From the sequence record MN850647.1: 64,000 bases of DNA; one strand, 5' to 3'. Positions 3,881-63,969 of this stretch are shown here, one piece after another. The notes below the pieces were generated by a model. The model did not search any database. It had not been told where the DNA came from and saw nothing but the letters and a program-made list of their open reading frames with translations. The translations under genes and the position numbers were made by a program. The stretch comes from Escherichia phage tootiki. Position 1 is the stretch's first letter, and each line of letters starts with the position of its first letter.

Positions 3881-6023
3881 ATGGAAAACGTAGATTTTAA
3901 AAACTTACATTTGGTTGGTGATACAGAAACTGATGGTTTACTCCTTGAGTTCACTAAAGTTCACGTAATGGCCTTTGCAGACTATAAATCTGACGATGAA
4001 GAGCCACCTGTATGGGTCTTTACAGATGAGCCTATCCTCGGTCACAAGTACACTAAGTACATTAAGGGTGGTTTACGTGAAGGTGTTGAGTTTGCGTTAA
4101 AGGCAAAACGACTTTGTATCCATAACGGCCTCGGTTATGACTGGTGGGTCTTCAATCACATTGCACCGGATTTATGGAACTTTGATAATCCAAAATGTAA
4201 GCCGTGGAGTAATTTCTTTCAGGATTCTCTTATTCAGTCTCGTGTTCAGTGGATGGATAGACCAACTCCAAAGGGTTATAAAGGTGCTCATGGTTTGGCT
4301 GCATGGGGTGCTCGTGTTGGTGTTCGTAAACCAGAGATTGAGCATTGGGGTGTATGGAATGCAGAAATCTTCACTCGTGTTGTAGAAGATATCCGTATTA
4401 ATGCCAAAACTAAACGGGCACTTGATAACGAGTATCTCAAGCTTAAGAAGTGTGGTATAGACACTTATGAGACTTACATGCGAGCTAAAGAGACATCTTT
4501 CTGGATGAGCCAGCAAGCTATCAATGGTTGGAAAGCTGATAAGGAGCTTATGGAGTTCCATGTAAAGGAACTTGACAAGTTGACTAATGAGCTTGCTTCA
4601 GAGGTTGAACCACATCTACCTCCAACTATTAAGACCAAAGGTAAAGTGACTGGAGAAGAGTTTGCAAAAGCTTGGAATGAGTATGTTGAAACATTTGGTC
4701 ATGCAGATGGACTGAAGAGAATTACCAAGTACCCTAAGACAAAGTACCGTCAGCAGGTACGTAACGGTGAGATGCAGACATACGAAATCAAACCATTTGG
4801 TAAGCCAACTACAAAGATTTTTAATATTGAAAAGAGAAATTGCTATACACCAACCAACTCTGTAACTGGTGAAGAGTACAAAGAGGGTTTTGTAGCGATG
4901 AAGGATGCTCGTGCAATCTGCAACGAGTTGAATGCAAAGATTGGCAAAAAATGCAAAGACTGGAAACCAGTAAAAACAGTCAAGACTGTGAAGTACTATA
5001 ACAGTCACGTTGTCAATCACTTTGAACTTGAGTCAAGTCGCTACACAGGTTTGATTGATGCACCATATACACCAATTGAGTTTGAAGTTTCTCGTATGAC
5101 TCAGGTAGCAGTTGTTAAAGACTACTTGAAATCAGTTGGTTGGATTCCAGATGACTGGAATTACAAGAAAGACTCAGATGGTCGCCCTATCAAAGTTTGT
5201 CGTTTCAAAGACAATAAAAAGATGATTACAAAGCATCCTAAGTGGCAGGAAATGGTTGAGCGGTGTGGTTTGAGTTATGTTGAACATGAAGGTGTACAGT
5301 ACATCGAGCATAACTGGTCTGTGAAGAAATACACAGATTTGCTTGAACCTTGCTTAATCCGTACTTCACCAAAACTTACTGAGTCATCTTATGATACGAT
5401 TGAAGGTGAACTTGGACAGAAGATTGCTAAGTACTACACTTTGATGCACCGACGCAGAACTATTGAGAACTCAAAGGATGATGAAAAAGGTTGGTTGAAC
5501 CAGATTCGTCCTGATGGTCGCCTTAGTGCTGGTGCAATGGTATTTGGTACTTCAACTGGACGTATGACACAATATGGTATTGTAAACGTACCGTCTGGTG
5601 CTGCTGTCTATGGAGCACCTATGAGGGAGGTGTGGACTTGTGAAGATGGTACAGATATCATCTCCGTAGACCAAAACTCAGCCCAGCTAGTTCTTCTTTG
5701 TAACTTTATGGGTGATGAAGACTTCACTAAAGCAGTAACCGAGGGTAAAGAGTCAGTAGAGTTCACTAAGCAAGATGATGGTAGGTACTACTGTAAGCAT
5801 CTTGACAAGTATCTTAACCCAGAAACTGACAAGTATCTGCGTTATGATGCTGAGAATGACCTCTATGAAGTCTACACAGGGACTGATGCGCATACACTGA
5901 ACAGTATTTACTTTGGTCTGAACAAGGAAGAAGATATTGTTCGTTGTAGGGAGACACAGGATGATGAGCTTCTTCACGAGATTACAAAAGGTCGTAAGAA
6001 GGCTAAGAATGGCATTTATGCGT
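3881..6023 (+). CDS. DNA polymerase, family A (T7 gp5-like), exon 1 (3'-5' exonuclease and N-terminal polymerase domain)
   Basis: ATG at 3881 after GGAGG; Exo I motif LVGDTETDGL; reading frame ends inside motif B (RKKAKNGIYA) and is followed by an in-frame stop at 6062. Confidence 0.85.
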
Positions 6024-7989: not shown

Positions 7990-8227
7990 TATGTGGAAAT
8001 CAGTAATTGCGCTTGGTGTTATTTTTATATCTGGCTGCAACCCTTCTTATGAAGATAAAAATGCTTCTTACAGCCTCCCACCAGAGATGCAAGATTGCAG
8101 AGTATACAAGTTACATGGTGATGCTATAAGCAGAGATATTGTTGTTGTCAGATGTCCAAACTCCCAAACAACAACATCTTATAGCTATGGCAAAAATGGT
8201 CAATCACACACTACGGTTATTGAGTGA
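7990..8227 (+). CDS. putative lipoprotein
   Basis: Signal peptide with lipobox-like ISGC; start chosen at internal ATG 7990. Confidence 0.45.
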
Positions 8228-47873: not shown

Positions 47874-48754
47874 TTAAAGCAAAGACTTACCCAGACTTCA
47901 AAGAGTTTGTGAAGGGTTTCATTGCAAATGTAAAGGCTGGTAAGAGGTATGATTTTAGAACATATCAAGAGGCTATTTTACCACTTACCTATAGTTCATA
48001 TTGGCCTGAAGCTGATATTGCAGAAGTTGAGAAGTTTGACTACAAACCAGACTACAAAGTTCCATTTAGTGATGAATTGCTTTACAGTGTTGGTGCACAG
48101 ATGAGAACTGCTGATTTCTTCATGGATTTGCAGTATGCAATCATCAATGGTAAAGATGTTGACACAATTTACTGTGAATGGTTGGCAAGAGTTAAGCCGT
48201 TCTCAATGTTGAATGCTAAGTTGAAGGATGCTATTAAGCCACCAGCAATTACTCAGCAACCGACAGGTCAAACAGTCAATGAGGGTGGCACACTTACTCT
48301 AAGCATTCTAGCAACTAACGCCACTGGATATCAGTGGAAGAAGGATGGTGAGGACATCCCTAGTGCCAATTCTGCAACTTACACAAAACAGTCAGTAGCA
48401 CCTTCTGATGCTGGTTCATACACTTGTGTTGTATCTGGAGAGGGTGGAACAAGTGTTACCTCAGATGCAGCAACAGTGACTGTGAATGCACTTCCTGTCA
48501 TCACTCAACAGCCAACCAATCAAGAAATCAATGAAGGTGAGACCTTAACGTTGAATGTTGTGGCAACAGGTGCAACAGGTTATCAGTGGAAGAAAGATGA
48601 GGAAGACATCCTCGATGCAACTACTGCAACCTACACCAAAGAAGGAGCAACCGCTGCTGATTCAGGAAGCTACACCTGTGTAGTTACTGGTGCAGGTGGC
48701 TCTGTAACATCTAATGCGGCAACAGTTACAGTTAACCCAGCAGGGGAGGCATAA
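47870..48754 (+). CDS. protein with two C-terminal Ig-like domains
   Basis: Tandem repeats ITQQPTxQxxNEGxTLTLxxxATxATGYQWKKDxEDIxxAxxATYTKxxxxxxDxGSYTCVVxGxGGxSVTSxAATVTVN. Confidence 0.6.
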   Translation: MIKAKTYPDFKEFVKGFIANVKAGKRYDFRTYQEAILPLTYSSYWPEADIAEVEKFDYKPDYKVPFSDELLYSVGAQMRTADFFMDLQYAIINGKDVDTIYCEWLARVKPFSMLNAKLKDAIKPPAITQQPTGQTVNEGGTLTLSILATNATGYQWKKDGEDIPSANSATYTKQSVAPSDAGSYTCVVSGEGGTSVTSDAATVTVNALPVITQQPTNQEINEGETLTLNVVATGATGYQWKKDEEDILDATTATYTKEGATAADSGSYTCVVTGAGGSVTSNAATVTVNPAGEA

Positions 48755-49218
48755 TGCAACTCTCAAGAAAAGGTTTAGAAGCTATTAAGTTCTTTGAAGG
48801 TCTGAAGTTAGAGGCTTACAAAGACTCCGCCGGAATCCCAACAATTGGGTATGGTACAATCCGTATTGACGGAAAACCTGTTAAGATGGGTATGAAAATT
48901 ACTGCTGAACAAGCTGAACAGTATCTTCTCGCAGATGTTGAAAAGTTTGTTGCAGCAGTGAACAAAGCTATCAAGGTTCCAACCTCTCAGAATGAGTTCG
49001 ATGCACTTGTAAGTGAAACATACAACATTGGTATCACAGCTATGCAGGATTCTACATTTATTAAGCGCCACAATGCTGGTAATAAGGTAGGTTGTGCAGA
49101 AGCTATGCAGTGGTGGAACAAGATTACAGTCAAAGGTGAGAAGGTCACTTCAAACGGTCTGAAAAACAGACGTAGAATGGAAGCTGACATTTATCTTGAC
49201 AGTGTATATCCAAAGTAA
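48754..49218 (+). CDS. endolysin (T4 lysozyme-like)
   Basis: FEGLKLEAYKDSAGIPTIGYG catalytic-region pattern (Glu ... Asp ... Thr). Confidence 0.8.
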   Translation: MQLSRKGLEAIKFFEGLKLEAYKDSAGIPTIGYGTIRIDGKPVKMGMKITAEQAEQYLLADVEKFVAAVNKAIKVPTSQNEFDALVSETYNIGITAMQDSTFIKRHNAGNKVGCAEAMQWWNKITVKGEKVTSNGLKNRRRMEADIYLDSVYPK

Positions 49219-60839: not shown

Positions 60840-61040
60840 TACCCACCTACCTGCACAATTCTAAAATGATTTTTCTTGCCCGACCTGAGCGGGGTCTGCA
60901 CGTTTTGAAAATGAAAAAGCTCTTTGGAGATTACCTGCACAGTTTAAAAATGAATTTTCTCTTTGGAGTTCAAAATTCTCTCTACAGATTTCTCTACAGA
61001 ACTCTACCTGCACAAATCTGAAATGAAAAAGCCCTCCTTA
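60840..61040. promoter_or_regulatory. cluster of direct repeats upstream of the leftward small-gene array (candidate operator/promoter region)
   Basis: Three copies of TACCTGCACAnnTnTnAAATGA at 60848-60869, 60932-60953 and 61005-61026; repeated CTCTTTGGAG and AAATGAAAAAG. Confidence 0.5.
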
Positions 61041-61099
61041 CCTGAAAAATTTACCAGATAAGAAAGGCTTAGGCTATTGTGAATATCCTACAGAGTTTC

Positions 61100-61885
61100 T
61101 TAGTTCTTTGCGTCTAAGAAGGTAACTTCTGGTGAAGAGAAAACTGTCTCGATATCCTCATCAGTTCTTGCATAGATATAAGTATCTGCATCACTGCCAA
61201 ATGTTACTGCAATCCTGTGATTGCTCTTCGACAGGTGGGTAACTAGAGCGTTACTCAGAGACATCTTTTCAACCGGAGGGTTACTTTGATGTATCTTACC
61301 TTTTCTTCGTCTGAAGAGGGTAACTGCGTTATCTGTGAACACTGCTACACCTGCAAAGTATTCTGGTTCACAGTAGTTCTTCCAACCTGAGCGTAACTTG
61401 TGGTACATCTCTCCTTCGTAGACATAAAGATACACATCTACACTCTTCATCACCTGATTAATGATAACTGTGACGGCTTGAGGGTCTAGCCCACCGATAC
61501 CTGCACCAATCATAGGTAAACCAACCTTCTTCAACTGGTTGACTTCACAGTATCTGTTAAGCTGCTTCAAAGATGACTCTAAAGCACTGTATCGGGCATC
61601 TTTACCAGTCTTAAGCTGAGTGTAAAGGTTAGCTATACGGCCTTGTTCTAAACGTGCTACAGAGAAATTACCCAGTAAATTTTCACAGGGTTTGTGACCT
61701 ATACCACCTGCATAGAGGTAAACTTCTGTATCGGTCTCATATGCTTTTGGGTAAAGTTTAGAAATCTTGTCAGCGATACCTACACCCATTAAATTCATAC
61801 AGTTGCAACCGTGACCAATAATATCAAACTTACCTTTATCAAATGCTGAGAAGATATCCCCATTGATGATTTTTACAATACCCAT
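61100..61885 (-). CDS. macro-domain (ADP-ribose binding/processing) protein with C-terminal extension
   Basis: N-terminal IINGDIFSAFDKGKFDIIGHGCNCMNLMGVGIADKI matches the macro-domain pattern (GDIT ... DAIVNAAN ... GGGVAGAI) by eye. Confidence 0.55.
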   Translation of the reverse strand: MGIVKIINGDIFSAFDKGKFDIIGHGCNCMNLMGVGIADKISKLYPKAYETDTEVYLYAGGIGHKPCENLLGNFSVARLEQGRIANLYTQLKTGKDARYSALESSLKQLNRYCEVNQLKKVGLPMIGAGIGGLDPQAVTVIINQVMKSVDVYLYVYEGEMYHKLRSGWKNYCEPEYFAGVAVFTDNAVTLFRRRKGKIHQSNPPVEKMSLSNALVTHLSKSNHRIAVTFGSDADTYIYARTDEDIETVFSSPEVTFLDAKN

Positions 61886-62086: not shown

Positions 62087-62306
62087 GAATAATTGCCTCT
62101 TGAATGATGATACCTTTACCACAACGACTTTTAAAGTTTTCCAATGGTTCAGAGATGAAGCCACGTAAGCAGTCAGTGAATACTAAGTTCTTCCTGTAAG
62201 CTATCACATCATTTGCTGTAAATGGGATGACCTCATTTCGTCCAATGAACACTGCTGACCTGATAAGTTTTCGTGCCTTTTTATCTCTGGCTAGTATTAC
62301 TTTCAT
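62079..62306 (-). CDS. hypothetical small protein
   Basis: 75-aa ORF with GAAGG upstream. Confidence 0.45.
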   Translation of the reverse strand: MKVILARDKKARKLIRSAVFIGRNEVIPFTANDVIAYRKNLVFTDCLRGFISEPLENFKSRCGKGIIIQEAIIHG

Positions 62307-62607
62307 AGTTTACCTTCTCGGTTAGCTCATATAAATCAACATGCTCAATACTATCAATGTTGATATCAATCTTTTTGAAACGCTCCTTCACTTCGTTGTC
62401 AGTCATCCATATCAGACACCAATGATTATGGATGGATTCTTCAAGAAGTTCAACACAATCTTTGAAAGTTTTTGTATCACTTCTCGTTCCAACTACTGCG
62501 ATTGTTCCATATAGCCACTTACCATTGCCATAAGACACTTGTGCTACGCCAACTTCTTTACCTTTCTCGTAGTAAACGGCTACAAAGTCTCTTCCATTAA
62601 TCTGCAT
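62281..62607 (-). CDS. hypothetical protein
   Basis: 108-aa ORF. Confidence 0.5.
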   Translation of the reverse strand: MQINGRDFVAVYYEKGKEVGVAQVSYGNGKWLYGTIAVVGTRSDTKTFKDCVELLEESIHNHWCLIWMTDNEVKERFKKIDINIDSIEHVDLYELTEKVNYESNTSQR

Positions 62608-62881: not shown

Positions 62882-63145
62882 CTATTTATTTCCTAATAAA
62901 ATCATATCAATAAGGTTATTAGCTTTGATTGTGCACTGGTAAAATCCATCACGATAGAACTCAAGGGCTGCTGCTACATCACTGCCTGTGTTGCCTTTGA
63001 TGGTATACCGTGATTCTTCTTGAGTGTACTTGTCACTCTCACTTACTTGGGAGTTTTTGAATGTACTGTTCACTTTGTTCGTTGAACACCCTGACATAAT
63101 TATCAGTAACACAAACATTATAAAACTCTGGCTTAGTTTTTTCAT
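62882..63145 (-). CDS. lipoprotein (candidate o-spanin)
   Basis: Signal peptide with lipobox LIIMSGCS; AAGAGG upstream; overlaps the 3' end of the upstream membrane-protein gene in another frame. Confidence 0.45.
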   Translation of the reverse strand: MKKLSQSFIMFVLLIIMSGCSTNKVNSTFKNSQVSESDKYTQEESRYTIKGNTGSDVAAALEFYRDGFYQCTIKANNLIDMILLGNK

Positions 63146-63386
63146 ATGTTAGTACCTCTTTTGTATGCTTATTCTTAGCAAGCACATCTTTCAAATCATT
63201 TTTGTAATTGGTGCTCAGTGTGACTAAACCTTCCTGATAAGCATCTTTAGCAACACTGATTAGTTTCTCATTGTTTAGCTCAGCTTCAGCAACTTGATAG
63301 TCTCTGTAAGAGTATCCTCCCCAGACACCTGCTCCAACTAAGAAAACAATTATGAAAGTAGCTTGACAGAACTCTTTAAATGTCAT
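63039..63386 (-). CDS. membrane-anchored protein (candidate i-spanin)
   Basis: N-terminal transmembrane segment FIIVFLVGAGVWGGY followed by helical charged region. Confidence 0.4.
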   Translation of the reverse strand: MTFKEFCQATFIIVFLVGAGVWGGYSYRDYQVAEAELNNEKLISVAKDAYQEGLVTLSTNYKNDLKDVLAKNKHTKEVLTYEKTKPEFYNVCVTDNYVRVFNEQSEQYIQKLPSK

Positions 63387-63432
63387 TTAACAATCTCCTG
63401 AAATGAAAAAGGCTCCCGAAGGAGCCTGTGTA

Positions 63433-63969
63433 TTATTCTTGACTGTAATAGTTGACAAGTGAAATCGCTTGATTCATCAACAACTTATCAGCCTGTGCTC
63501 CGCGACCAGCTTGTAATGCCAGTTGGTATACCTCTGTAACATATTTGTTAGACATACCTTCACAGTAGTCATTATAGTCTTCCCAAAAGGAAAATGCAGC
63601 ATCACCATATAGGCGTAGTGTAATTAACATTGCTGCACGAATCCCAGAAGAATATTTCCGTTTTGCGTTTACTACACCTTTAAGCTGTACTTCAAGAGAA
63701 TCAATTTGTTCCAGCTCATTTTTAAAGTCATTAAGATATTTAACTGTTTCAGTGTTAGAGACCTGTTGTACACCGTAGTATGCAGCAACATATTTAATAG
63801 CAGTTGCCCAAGATGCTTTCATCAGTTCTGACTCTGGGTTGAAAGAAATCATCTTCATATTTCCGTAATAAACTTCTGAAGGTTTTTCTCTTGCTAACTC
63901 AGAGTCAAAATGAGTGTACAAATCTGTGACATCCAATATGGAGTTCACATGGTATATAACTGCAATCAA
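63433..63969 (-). CDS. hypothetical protein
   Basis: 178-aa ORF. Confidence 0.5.
   Translation of the reverse strand: MIAVIYHVNSILDVTDLYTHFDSELAREKPSEVYYGNMKMISFNPESELMKASWATAIKYVAAYYGVQQVSNTETVKYLNDFKNELEQIDSLEVQLKGVVNAKRKYSSGIRAAMLITLRLYGDAAFSFWEDYNDYCEGMSNKYVTEVYQLALQAGRGAQADKLLMNQAISLVNYYSQE

Follow-up and report, generated by a model that had tools for sequence, protein, structure and literature searches.

Here, we examined a pair of overlapping genes on one strand, at positions 62882-63386, of a 64,000-nucleotide stretch of DNA from Escherichia phage tootiki (sequence record MN850647.1), hereafter the window. Our findings make it very probable that the pair is the two-component spanin of a Felix O1-like myophage, with one subunit in the inner membrane (i-spanin) and a lipoprotein subunit in the outer membrane (o-spanin). 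A first-pass annotation had recognised an i-spanin/o-spanin architecture at this locus, and that claim is upheld by a match of the membrane protein to the spanin family PHROG 1152, by prior annotation of the same genes, by selection acting on both frames, by paired homologues at 79 of 80 loci, and by spanin-like invariant features. Membership in the functional class of two-component spanins is supported by the predicted layout of the proteins: a single N-terminal transmembrane segment in one, a lipobox cysteine without Asp at position +2 in the other, overlapping genes on the same strand, and cysteines near both C-termini. According to a published rule (PMC6139136), a homotypic disulfide near the interface of the inner and outer subunits is required in two-component spanins; the window pair fits it, each protein having one invariant periplasmic cysteine not far from its C-terminus (C92 of the i-spanin, C71 of the o-spanin). 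The pair is already known, catalogued, and annotated; as it is annotated in GenBank and listed in a spanin census, the finding is a rediscovery, correct but ordinary.

The Two Proteins

A membrane protein with an N-terminal transmembrane segment had been proposed at 63039-63386, and the 115-residue product indeed has one strongly hydrophobic stretch: residues 6-24 (FCQATFIIVFLVGAGVWGG) are its most hydrophobic 19 amino acids, with a Kyte-Doolittle mean of 1.75, and the remainder is polar. The layout with a single N-terminal transmembrane segment is common to all i-spanin homologues seen. The protein would adopt an N-in/C-out topology, with a helical C-terminal domain in the periplasm. Over its full length (residues 1-115) it matches PHROG 1152, labelled "Rz-like spanin" (1e-41). 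Two cysteines occur, Cys7 at the start of the hydrophobic segment and Cys92, the latter 24 residues from the C-terminus and invariant in family alignments; G24, F88, N90, C92, and N102 are unchanged in 70 sequences. The helical region is variable; after it comes a conserved block at the C-terminus, E-K-T-K-P-V-F-x-N-V-C-x-[ST]-D-x-Y-V-R-L-F-N-E, which in the AlphaFold2 model would be carried by a loop (80-94) between a helix continuous with the transmembrane segment (3-79) and a second helix (95-111). This model is of low confidence (mean predicted local distance difference test score, pLDDT, 58). For the i-spanin of Felix O1, 65.9% predicted helix and 0 coiled-coil segments were listed (PMC6139136, supplement). 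A crude heptad count of the window protein gave hydrophobic a/d positions in 6/8 cases in the best-scoring windows, and there is a weak profile match to FtsB, a protein with a transmembrane segment and a coiled coil (E = 0.08).

The o-spanin gene (62882-63145) encodes a lipoprotein precursor which starts with MKKLSQSFIMFVLLIIMSG followed by CST; its basic N-terminus leads into a hydrophobic core and the lipobox M-S-G-C20, with Ser21 at +2. The first-pass annotation had called this lipobox classic: the lipobox itself stands, fitting a pattern like that of PROSITE PS51257, yet "classic" is slightly generous, for the strictest pattern ([LVI][ASTVI][GAS]C) is failed on account of the Met at position -3. 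Variants of the motif (MSGC, ISGC, or MSAC) are conserved throughout the o-spanin family; the lipobox cysteine does not vary, and each homologue seen has Ser or Thr at +2. Since Ser rather than Asp occupies +2, the protein is predicted to be sorted to the outer membrane. Its mature part contains no proline (0 Pro), as had been remarked before, and one further cysteine, C71, placed 17 residues from the C-terminus in a C-terminal helical segment. Profile matches were obtained to PHROG 4180 (2e-50), PHROG 2425 (1e-9), and, weakly, PHROG 456, the P2 LysC family (8.5e-5); PHROGs 4180 and 2425 carry no function label. Family alignments show C20, G54, C71, and N76 to be invariant. The AlphaFold2 model, again of low confidence (pLDDT 66; 89 in its best block), has a signal-peptide helix and two further helices (54-75 and 78-85); the linker between (18-53, some 33 amino acids after the lipobox) is modelled without regular secondary structure. 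Given pLDDT values of only 58 and 66, the two models were used for secondary structure alone, without fold searches.

One trait sets the window allele apart: where 29/29 relatives have CAG, it has TAG (62882-62887, minus strand), and the protein ends in GNK after 87 residues instead of in GNKQQ after 89. The two missing residues lie past the last conserved column of the family alignment. The early stop also removes an ATGA stop/start overlap with the following gene. The lipobox, the ribosome-binding site, and the cysteine residues are kept in 29/29 relatives.

Selection in Both Frames

The open reading frame (ORF) list bears out exactly the earlier statement that the two genes overlap in different frames, with 107 nucleotides in common. 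The o-spanin gene starts 241 nucleotides (80 codons and one nucleotide) inside the i-spanin gene, and the two are thus read in different frames. Dual coding was assessed in a gap-free alignment of 28 unique related sequences of the genus. In the part that encodes the i-spanin only, third-position diversity in the i frame was 0.229 and 59/79 third positions were variable; in the o-only part, the respective values for the o frame were 0.34 and 46/52. Within the 107-nucleotide overlap, diversity fell to 0.062 in the i frame (10/35 third positions variable) and to 0.059 in the o frame (9/35). The drop in variable third positions between single-coding and overlapping parts is significant for both frames (Fisher p = 7e-6 for i, 3e-9 for o). 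Beyond the 3' end of the overlap, the o frame shows a diversity of 0.34 at the third position versus 0.055-0.086 at positions 1 and 2. Any change that is silent in one frame alters the residue encoded in the other; both frames are therefore under purifying selection, and both overlapping genes are real.

In a DNA comparison with Kuravirus and Yersinia phages, the sole stretch of the locus that matched (about 80%) was query 241-308, corresponding to window 63079-63146, that is, the upstream end of the overlap plus its edge. Over the six frames of the 64-kb window, only two ATG-initiated ORFs of at least 40 amino acids carry a lipoprotein signal, against a mean of 0.25 in 20 shuffles. The overlap would save coding space and keep the two genes co-inherited and co-transcribed.

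Homologues in Lysis Cassettes

Homologues of both proteins were found at the protein level in the Erwinia phages phiEa104/phiEa21-4, a Hafnia phage, phiEco32-like podophages, 60-kb Klebsiella phages, and many enterobacterial P2-like prophages. A scan of IMG/VR with the i-spanin alignment returned 80 loci, and at 79/80 an ORF with a lipobox ([ST][GAS]C, then Ser/Thr) starts inside the i-spanin gene in another frame. Among non-redundant loci of phages other than Felixounavirus, the immediate upstream neighbour of the i-spanin gene matches an endolysin PHROG in 21/27, and the gene before that one a holin PHROG in 18/20 (phrog_175 in 17). Yersinia phage YenM324 (vB_YenM_324) displays the order holin, endolysin, i-spanin, and then an annotated overlapped o-spanin; holin, endolysin, and i-spanin follow one another in Salmonella phage SI7 as well, and in Klebsiella phage phi_KPN_H2 a small membrane protein stands between endolysin and i-spanin, whose end is overlapped by the o-spanin homologue. 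The partners in YenM324 and Klebsiella H2 fall in the same PHROGs as the window pair (1152 with 4180/2425). By gene order, then, the Felix O1-type spanin family comes last in canonical lysis cassettes wherever these are present, and this position of the homologues is the strongest non-experimental argument for a spanin function. Membership in the Felix O1/phiEco32-type overlapped spanin family (PHROG 1152 with 4180/2425) is supported by these profile matches.

Kuravirus, phiEa104/phiEa21-4, YenM324, and SI7 encode homologous i- and o-spanins at 25-45% identity, overlapped as here. The phiEco32-like, Erwinia, and P2-like relatives share with the window pair the C-terminal i-spanin motif with its invariant cysteine, and, in the o-spanin, the segments G-x-T-G-x-D and C-A-x-x-x-N-x-L. 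Nonetheless, o-spanins of relatives outside Ounavirinae exhibit 3-7 prolines and two periplasmic cysteines, whereas those of Felixounavirus have none and one, respectively; judged by this comparison, the Felixounavirus o-spanin has lost all its prolines and the first cysteine, a lineage-specific trait rather than a disqualifier. The genomic setting differs too: in P2-like phages and phi_KPN_H2 the pair ends a compact holin-endolysin-spanin cassette, whereas the window has its lysis genes far apart. Neither in Kuravirus IMEP8 nor in phiEa104 does the pair have an annotated lysis gene as a neighbour.

A DNA search of 5,426 complete Escherichia coli genomes with the i-spanin gene gave no match, indicating that this allele is not a common E. 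coli prophage gene. A sequence search of the Protein Data Bank (PDB) with both family profiles found no solved relative, and scans of both proteins against Pfam, NCBIfam, and PADLOC returned no more than weak matches of the lipoprotein-signal type plus one spurious NCBIfam match far below the cut-off.

Source Phage and Prior Annotation

The window can be assigned to Felixounavirus, that is, to a Felix O1-like myophage, from sequence similarity: its last 3 kb share 94-97% nucleotide identity with many Felix O1-like myophages of this genus, and most of it is syntenic with Salmonella phage Mushroom. The same pair is annotated as i-spanin/o-spanin in many GenBank records, including JLBYU28, Andreotti, and the curated Mushroom record (CPT_Mushroom124/123), as in the Mushroom genome paper (PMC4392139). 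Moreover, Felix01, FO1a, and UAB_phi87 were classed among the "Overlapped" two-component spanins (Kongari et al. 2018, PMC6139136), and the supplement places the Felix O1 genes at 5330-5678 and at 5571-5841, overlapping by 107 nucleotides. The Felix O1 genes (NC_005282 p014 and the overlapped ORF) agree with the window in the length of this overlap and in the ribosome-binding string printed there for the i-spanin, which is identical, and the printed Felix O1 i-spanin differs from the window protein at 2/115 residues. The Mushroom o-spanin is 97.7% identical to that of the window; in the Felix O1/Mushroom type, the protein has 89 residues, against 87 in the window copy, which stops two codons early.

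Most database copies of the o-spanin (clusters P0009-P0023) are shortened calls of 73 or 68 amino acids, and the 73-residue cluster, with 303 members, is the largest among the matches. To judge by length, an internal residue, Met17 (MSGC...), would be the start of the 73-residue calls, and the signal peptide would be missing from either shortened form. Implausible labels are attached to neighbouring genes in several records: for instance, the homologue of 62281-62607 is called a "tail assembly protein", and a RegB-like endoribonuclease is called a "putative lysin". The latter, 3 kb upstream in JLBYU28, was considered as a nearby lysis gene and rejected, the curated Mushroom record naming the same gene a RegB-like endoribonuclease. 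The records MG065664.1 and MG065668.1 (Campylobacter phage A132/A126) and GU169904.1 (Staphylococcus phage SA1) contain Felix O1-like sequence that is 95-100% identical to the locus, which suggests that they are mislabelled or mixed.

Scattered Lysis Genes

The endolysin noted earlier at 48754, distant from the pair, is real; it belongs to PHROG 7 and lies 13.7 kb from the spanin genes. By homology to Mushroom, the holin, endolysin, and spanins are spread over 23 kb and both strands, and linkage of spanins to holin and endolysin, usual yet not obligatory, is absent here (40380-40934, 48754-49218, and 62882-63386). A class-III holin was described for phage Mushroom (PMC4392139). The putative holin of the window sits on the strand opposite to the tRNAs of the surrounding cluster; its family, PHROG 2143, has no function label, and the holin assignment in this phage group is the curators' annotation only. 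The coordinates of these genes and of the spanin features are collected in table 1.

Table 1. Features of the spanin locus and of the other lysis genes in the window
Feature	Position	Strand	Details
o-spanin gene	62882..63145	-	87-aa (amino acid) lipoprotein precursor; ATG start (ORF list)
Dual-coding segment	63039..63145	-	107 nt (nucleotides); i-spanin codons 81-115 and stop; o-spanin codons 1-35 and two bases of codon 36
i-spanin gene	63039..63386	-	115 aa; ATG start (ORF list); N-terminal transmembrane segment at about aa 6-24
Shine-Dalgarno-like AAGAGG	63155..63160	-	9 nt before the o-spanin ATG, within the i-spanin coding sequence; kept in 29/29 Felixounavirus relatives
Shine-Dalgarno-like AGGAG	63395..63399	-	8 nt before the i-spanin ATG
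Terminator-like GC-rich hairpin	63410..63427	-	AGGCTCC-TTCG-GGAGCCT, then TTTTT; from terminator scan; ends 23 nt upstream of the i-spanin start
Putative holin	40380..40934	-	185 aa; inside tRNA cluster; 96.8% identical to Mushroom protein annotated as holin
Endolysin, soluble lysozyme-type	48754..49218	+	PHROG 7 endolysin, 1e-58; Mushroom label "endolysin, lysozyme"

Comparison with the Spanins of T4, P2, and Lambda

The experimentally validated T4 spanin, PseT.3/PseT.2, is located far from the holin gene t and the endolysin gene e (PMC6139136), as is the window pair, and the distance from the endolysin, which the first-pass annotation had remarked upon, is for this reason no counter-argument. 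The T4 genes are part of an early region and stand two genes away from pseT, which encodes polynucleotide kinase, and pairs of the window type are likewise close to the kinase gene (pnk), with the difference that the T4 spanins are upstream of it and the window-type spanins downstream. In the Felix O1-type gene order, seen in the JLBYU28 and Mushroom records, rIIB, a RegB-like nuclease, pnk, and a hypothetical gene precede the spanins. Spanins are thus found within one or two genes of pnk both in T4 (NC_000866, 134002-135781) and in Felix O1-like phages, which may be coincidence or the remnant of a common early-region module. Like the window o-spanin, the o-spanin family of T4 has no proline-rich region and is predicted to be helical at the C-terminus (PMC6139136), so that the absence of proline does not count against the former either; the proteins of the two phages are similar in size. 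On the other hand, the T4 genes are of the "separated" type and those of the window overlapped, and T4 has two cysteines in the o-spanin and none in the i-spanin, whereas each window protein has one in the periplasm. BLASTP against the T4 proteins gave E = 27 for the i-spanins and E = 0.039 for the o-spanins, the latter over the signal peptide only, and the T4 PHROGs (739/812) are different ones.

P2 LysB/LysC share the overlapped architecture. Some distant relatives of the o-spanin reach the threshold of the Pfam model (PF23793) for LysC, the Rz1-like o-spanin of P2, among them P0158 with 28.1 bits versus a cut-off of 27, and hhalign of the o-spanin family profile against P2 LysC, at a probability of 16%, aligns the lipobox, C-P...P, T-N-G-D, and C-A motifs; for the i-spanin profile and P2 LysB the probability was 8%. 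The window proteins themselves matched none of the P2 models (TIGR03495 for LysB, PF23793/NF038368 for LysC), nor P2 LysB/LysC by BLASTP. A remote common ancestry of the o-spanin with P2 LysC is plausible on these profile alignments. As for lambda, Rz/Rz1 show the same design, an inner-membrane protein with a helical domain in the periplasm and an outer-membrane lipoprotein encoded out of frame within or overlapping its gene, along with periplasmic cysteines; yet Rz1 is fully embedded, proline-rich, and unstructured, whereas the window o-spanin is overlapped and, in its mature form, has 0 Pro. Neither window protein has a Pfam match to the Rz/Rz1 family. Altogether, these searches do not support membership in the lambda, P2, or T4 sequence families.

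Alternative Explanations

Several points weigh against a spanin. The gene block around the pair looks early, a terminator-like hairpin comes immediately before it, and holin and endolysin are far away. Neither protein matches any Pfam family or bears detectable similarity to the tested spanins of T4, and the link to the tested spanins of P2 is only marginal (no BLASTP match; hhalign 16% and 8%). The coiled-coil predictor of the census finds none in the Felix O1 i-spanin (PMC6139136), and the AlphaFold2 models of both proteins are of low confidence. The window o-spanin stops two residues early (CAG to TAG) relative to 29/29 relatives. The function is suggested by architecture, homology to annotated proteins, and gene context; a literature search found no lysis experiment on any member of the Felix O1-type spanin sequence family. 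The genomic position also invites a reading unrelated to lysis, in which the lipoprotein, like T5 Llp or lambdoid Cor, blocks a receptor or excludes superinfection and is made early together with a small membrane protein. The small, early-looking minus-strand genes near rIIB, the RegB-like nuclease, and polynucleotide kinase are what one would then look to, along with the distance from endolysin and holin and the missing proline-rich region of Rz1. Yet homologues of both proteins end canonical holin-endolysin cassettes in other lineages, the lipoprotein was never seen without its overlapped membrane partner, the proven T4 spanins likewise lie in an early region adjoining polynucleotide kinase, and there is no PADLOC match; we regard an exclusion function as very unlikely.

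To a similarly low degree of probability, the genes could be spanin-derived but a dispensable or decaying relic, the outer membrane being disrupted by something else. This would agree with the premature TAG that takes away the last two o-spanin residues, with the dispersed lysis genes, and with the established fact that spanin mutants of other phages (lambda Rz/Rz1) still lyse under shaking laboratory conditions. Decay is hard to reconcile with strong purifying selection in both frames throughout the genus, with the lipobox, ribosome-binding site, and cysteines being retained by all 29 relatives, and with the position of the two lost residues outside the conserved alignment; moreover, no other spanin-like pair was found in the window, the only other ORF with a lipoprotein signal, 7991-8227, being devoid of an upstream membrane partner. 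That the lipoprotein ORF is a chance open frame and the membrane protein alone is real might be read from the many gene callers which skip or shorten the o-spanin (the 73- and 68-residue clusters) and from the several GenBank records annotating one gene only. Nevertheless, the collapse of third-position variation in both frames of the overlap, the normal coding pattern of the o frame 3' of it, protein homologues down to about 25% identity with invariant C20, G54, C71, and N76, and a conserved Shine-Dalgarno sequence refute this explanation, whose probability is vanishingly small. Finally, there is a slight chance that the Felixounavirus spanins are an unusual variant, working by a mechanism other than the coiled-coil and proline-rich fusion of lambda or having a second, early role in envelope remodelling or exclusion; such a reading draws on the proline-free o-spanin with a single periplasmic cysteine and a helical C-terminal domain, the i-spanin without predicted coiled coil, and the early-type block behind the hairpin.

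Proposed Mechanism

Taking the pair as a two-component spanin, we suggest localisation, interaction, and lysis function by analogy with lambda and T4. The o-spanin would be lipid-modified at Cys20 and sorted to the inner leaflet of the outer membrane, and the i-spanin would be anchored in the inner membrane, its mostly helical C-terminal domain projecting into the periplasm. As in lambda Rz/Rz1 and T4 PseT.3/PseT.2, the two proteins would bind each other by their C-terminal parts, and the resulting complex would cross the periplasm through the mesh of peptidoglycan, with homotypic intermolecular disulfides (C92-C92 and C71-C71) possibly stabilising the junction. While the wall is intact, the complexes would remain inert, held in the mesh. 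As soon as the holin makes the inner membrane permeable and the lysozyme breaks down the wall, the complexes would be freed; they may then move, cluster, and collapse, so that the outer membrane is fused or ruptured and lysis is completed. Of a two-component spanin one expects that it is required for disruption of the outer membrane, that null mutants end as spherical cells stabilised by Mg2+, and that the pair complements lambda Rz/Rz1 amber mutants.

Neighbouring Elements

The hairpin upstream of the i-spanin is present in Mushroom and in 28/29 Felixounavirus relatives, its role as a terminator being putative; a search of the window for the terminator/ribosome-binding module (TTTTCATTTCAGGAG) gave this one copy and no repeat elsewhere. 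Similarity to Mushroom ends at 63429, right at the hairpin, and a variable insert lies upstream of it in the window and JLBYU28, with the PHROG 2615 ORF (63433-63969) and, in JLBYU28, a Dam-type methyltransferase; Mushroom and Andreotti have no such insert. Downstream of the spanins, the run of small genes is closed by a macro-domain protein (61100-61885, minus strand; Pfam Macro 3e-7; PHROG 335, "phosphatase"), annotated in one relative as O-acetyl-ADP-ribose deacetylase and followed by a second terminator-like hairpin (61029-61070, minus strand). The second ORF with a lipoprotein signal (7991-8227, plus strand) encodes 78 amino acids with MWKSVIALGVIFISG followed by CNP, belongs to PHROG 902, and is found just upstream of the DNA ligase gene. 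It was considered as a second spanin candidate and rejected, as no membrane-protein gene overlaps it; its product could be an exclusion-type or other envelope lipoprotein.

Implications

Felix O1-like phages are widely used for biocontrol and typing of Salmonella and E. coli. With the pair, such a phage has its full set of holin, endolysin, and spanin, and the value of the finding lies mainly in correct annotation. It is a known problem that annotation often overlooks overlapped o-spanin genes or starts them at an internal Met, which costs them the signal peptide, and the dual-coding test offers a cheap means of validating such genes. Furthermore, if a proline-free o-spanin is to be tested for function for the first time, this family would be a sensible choice.

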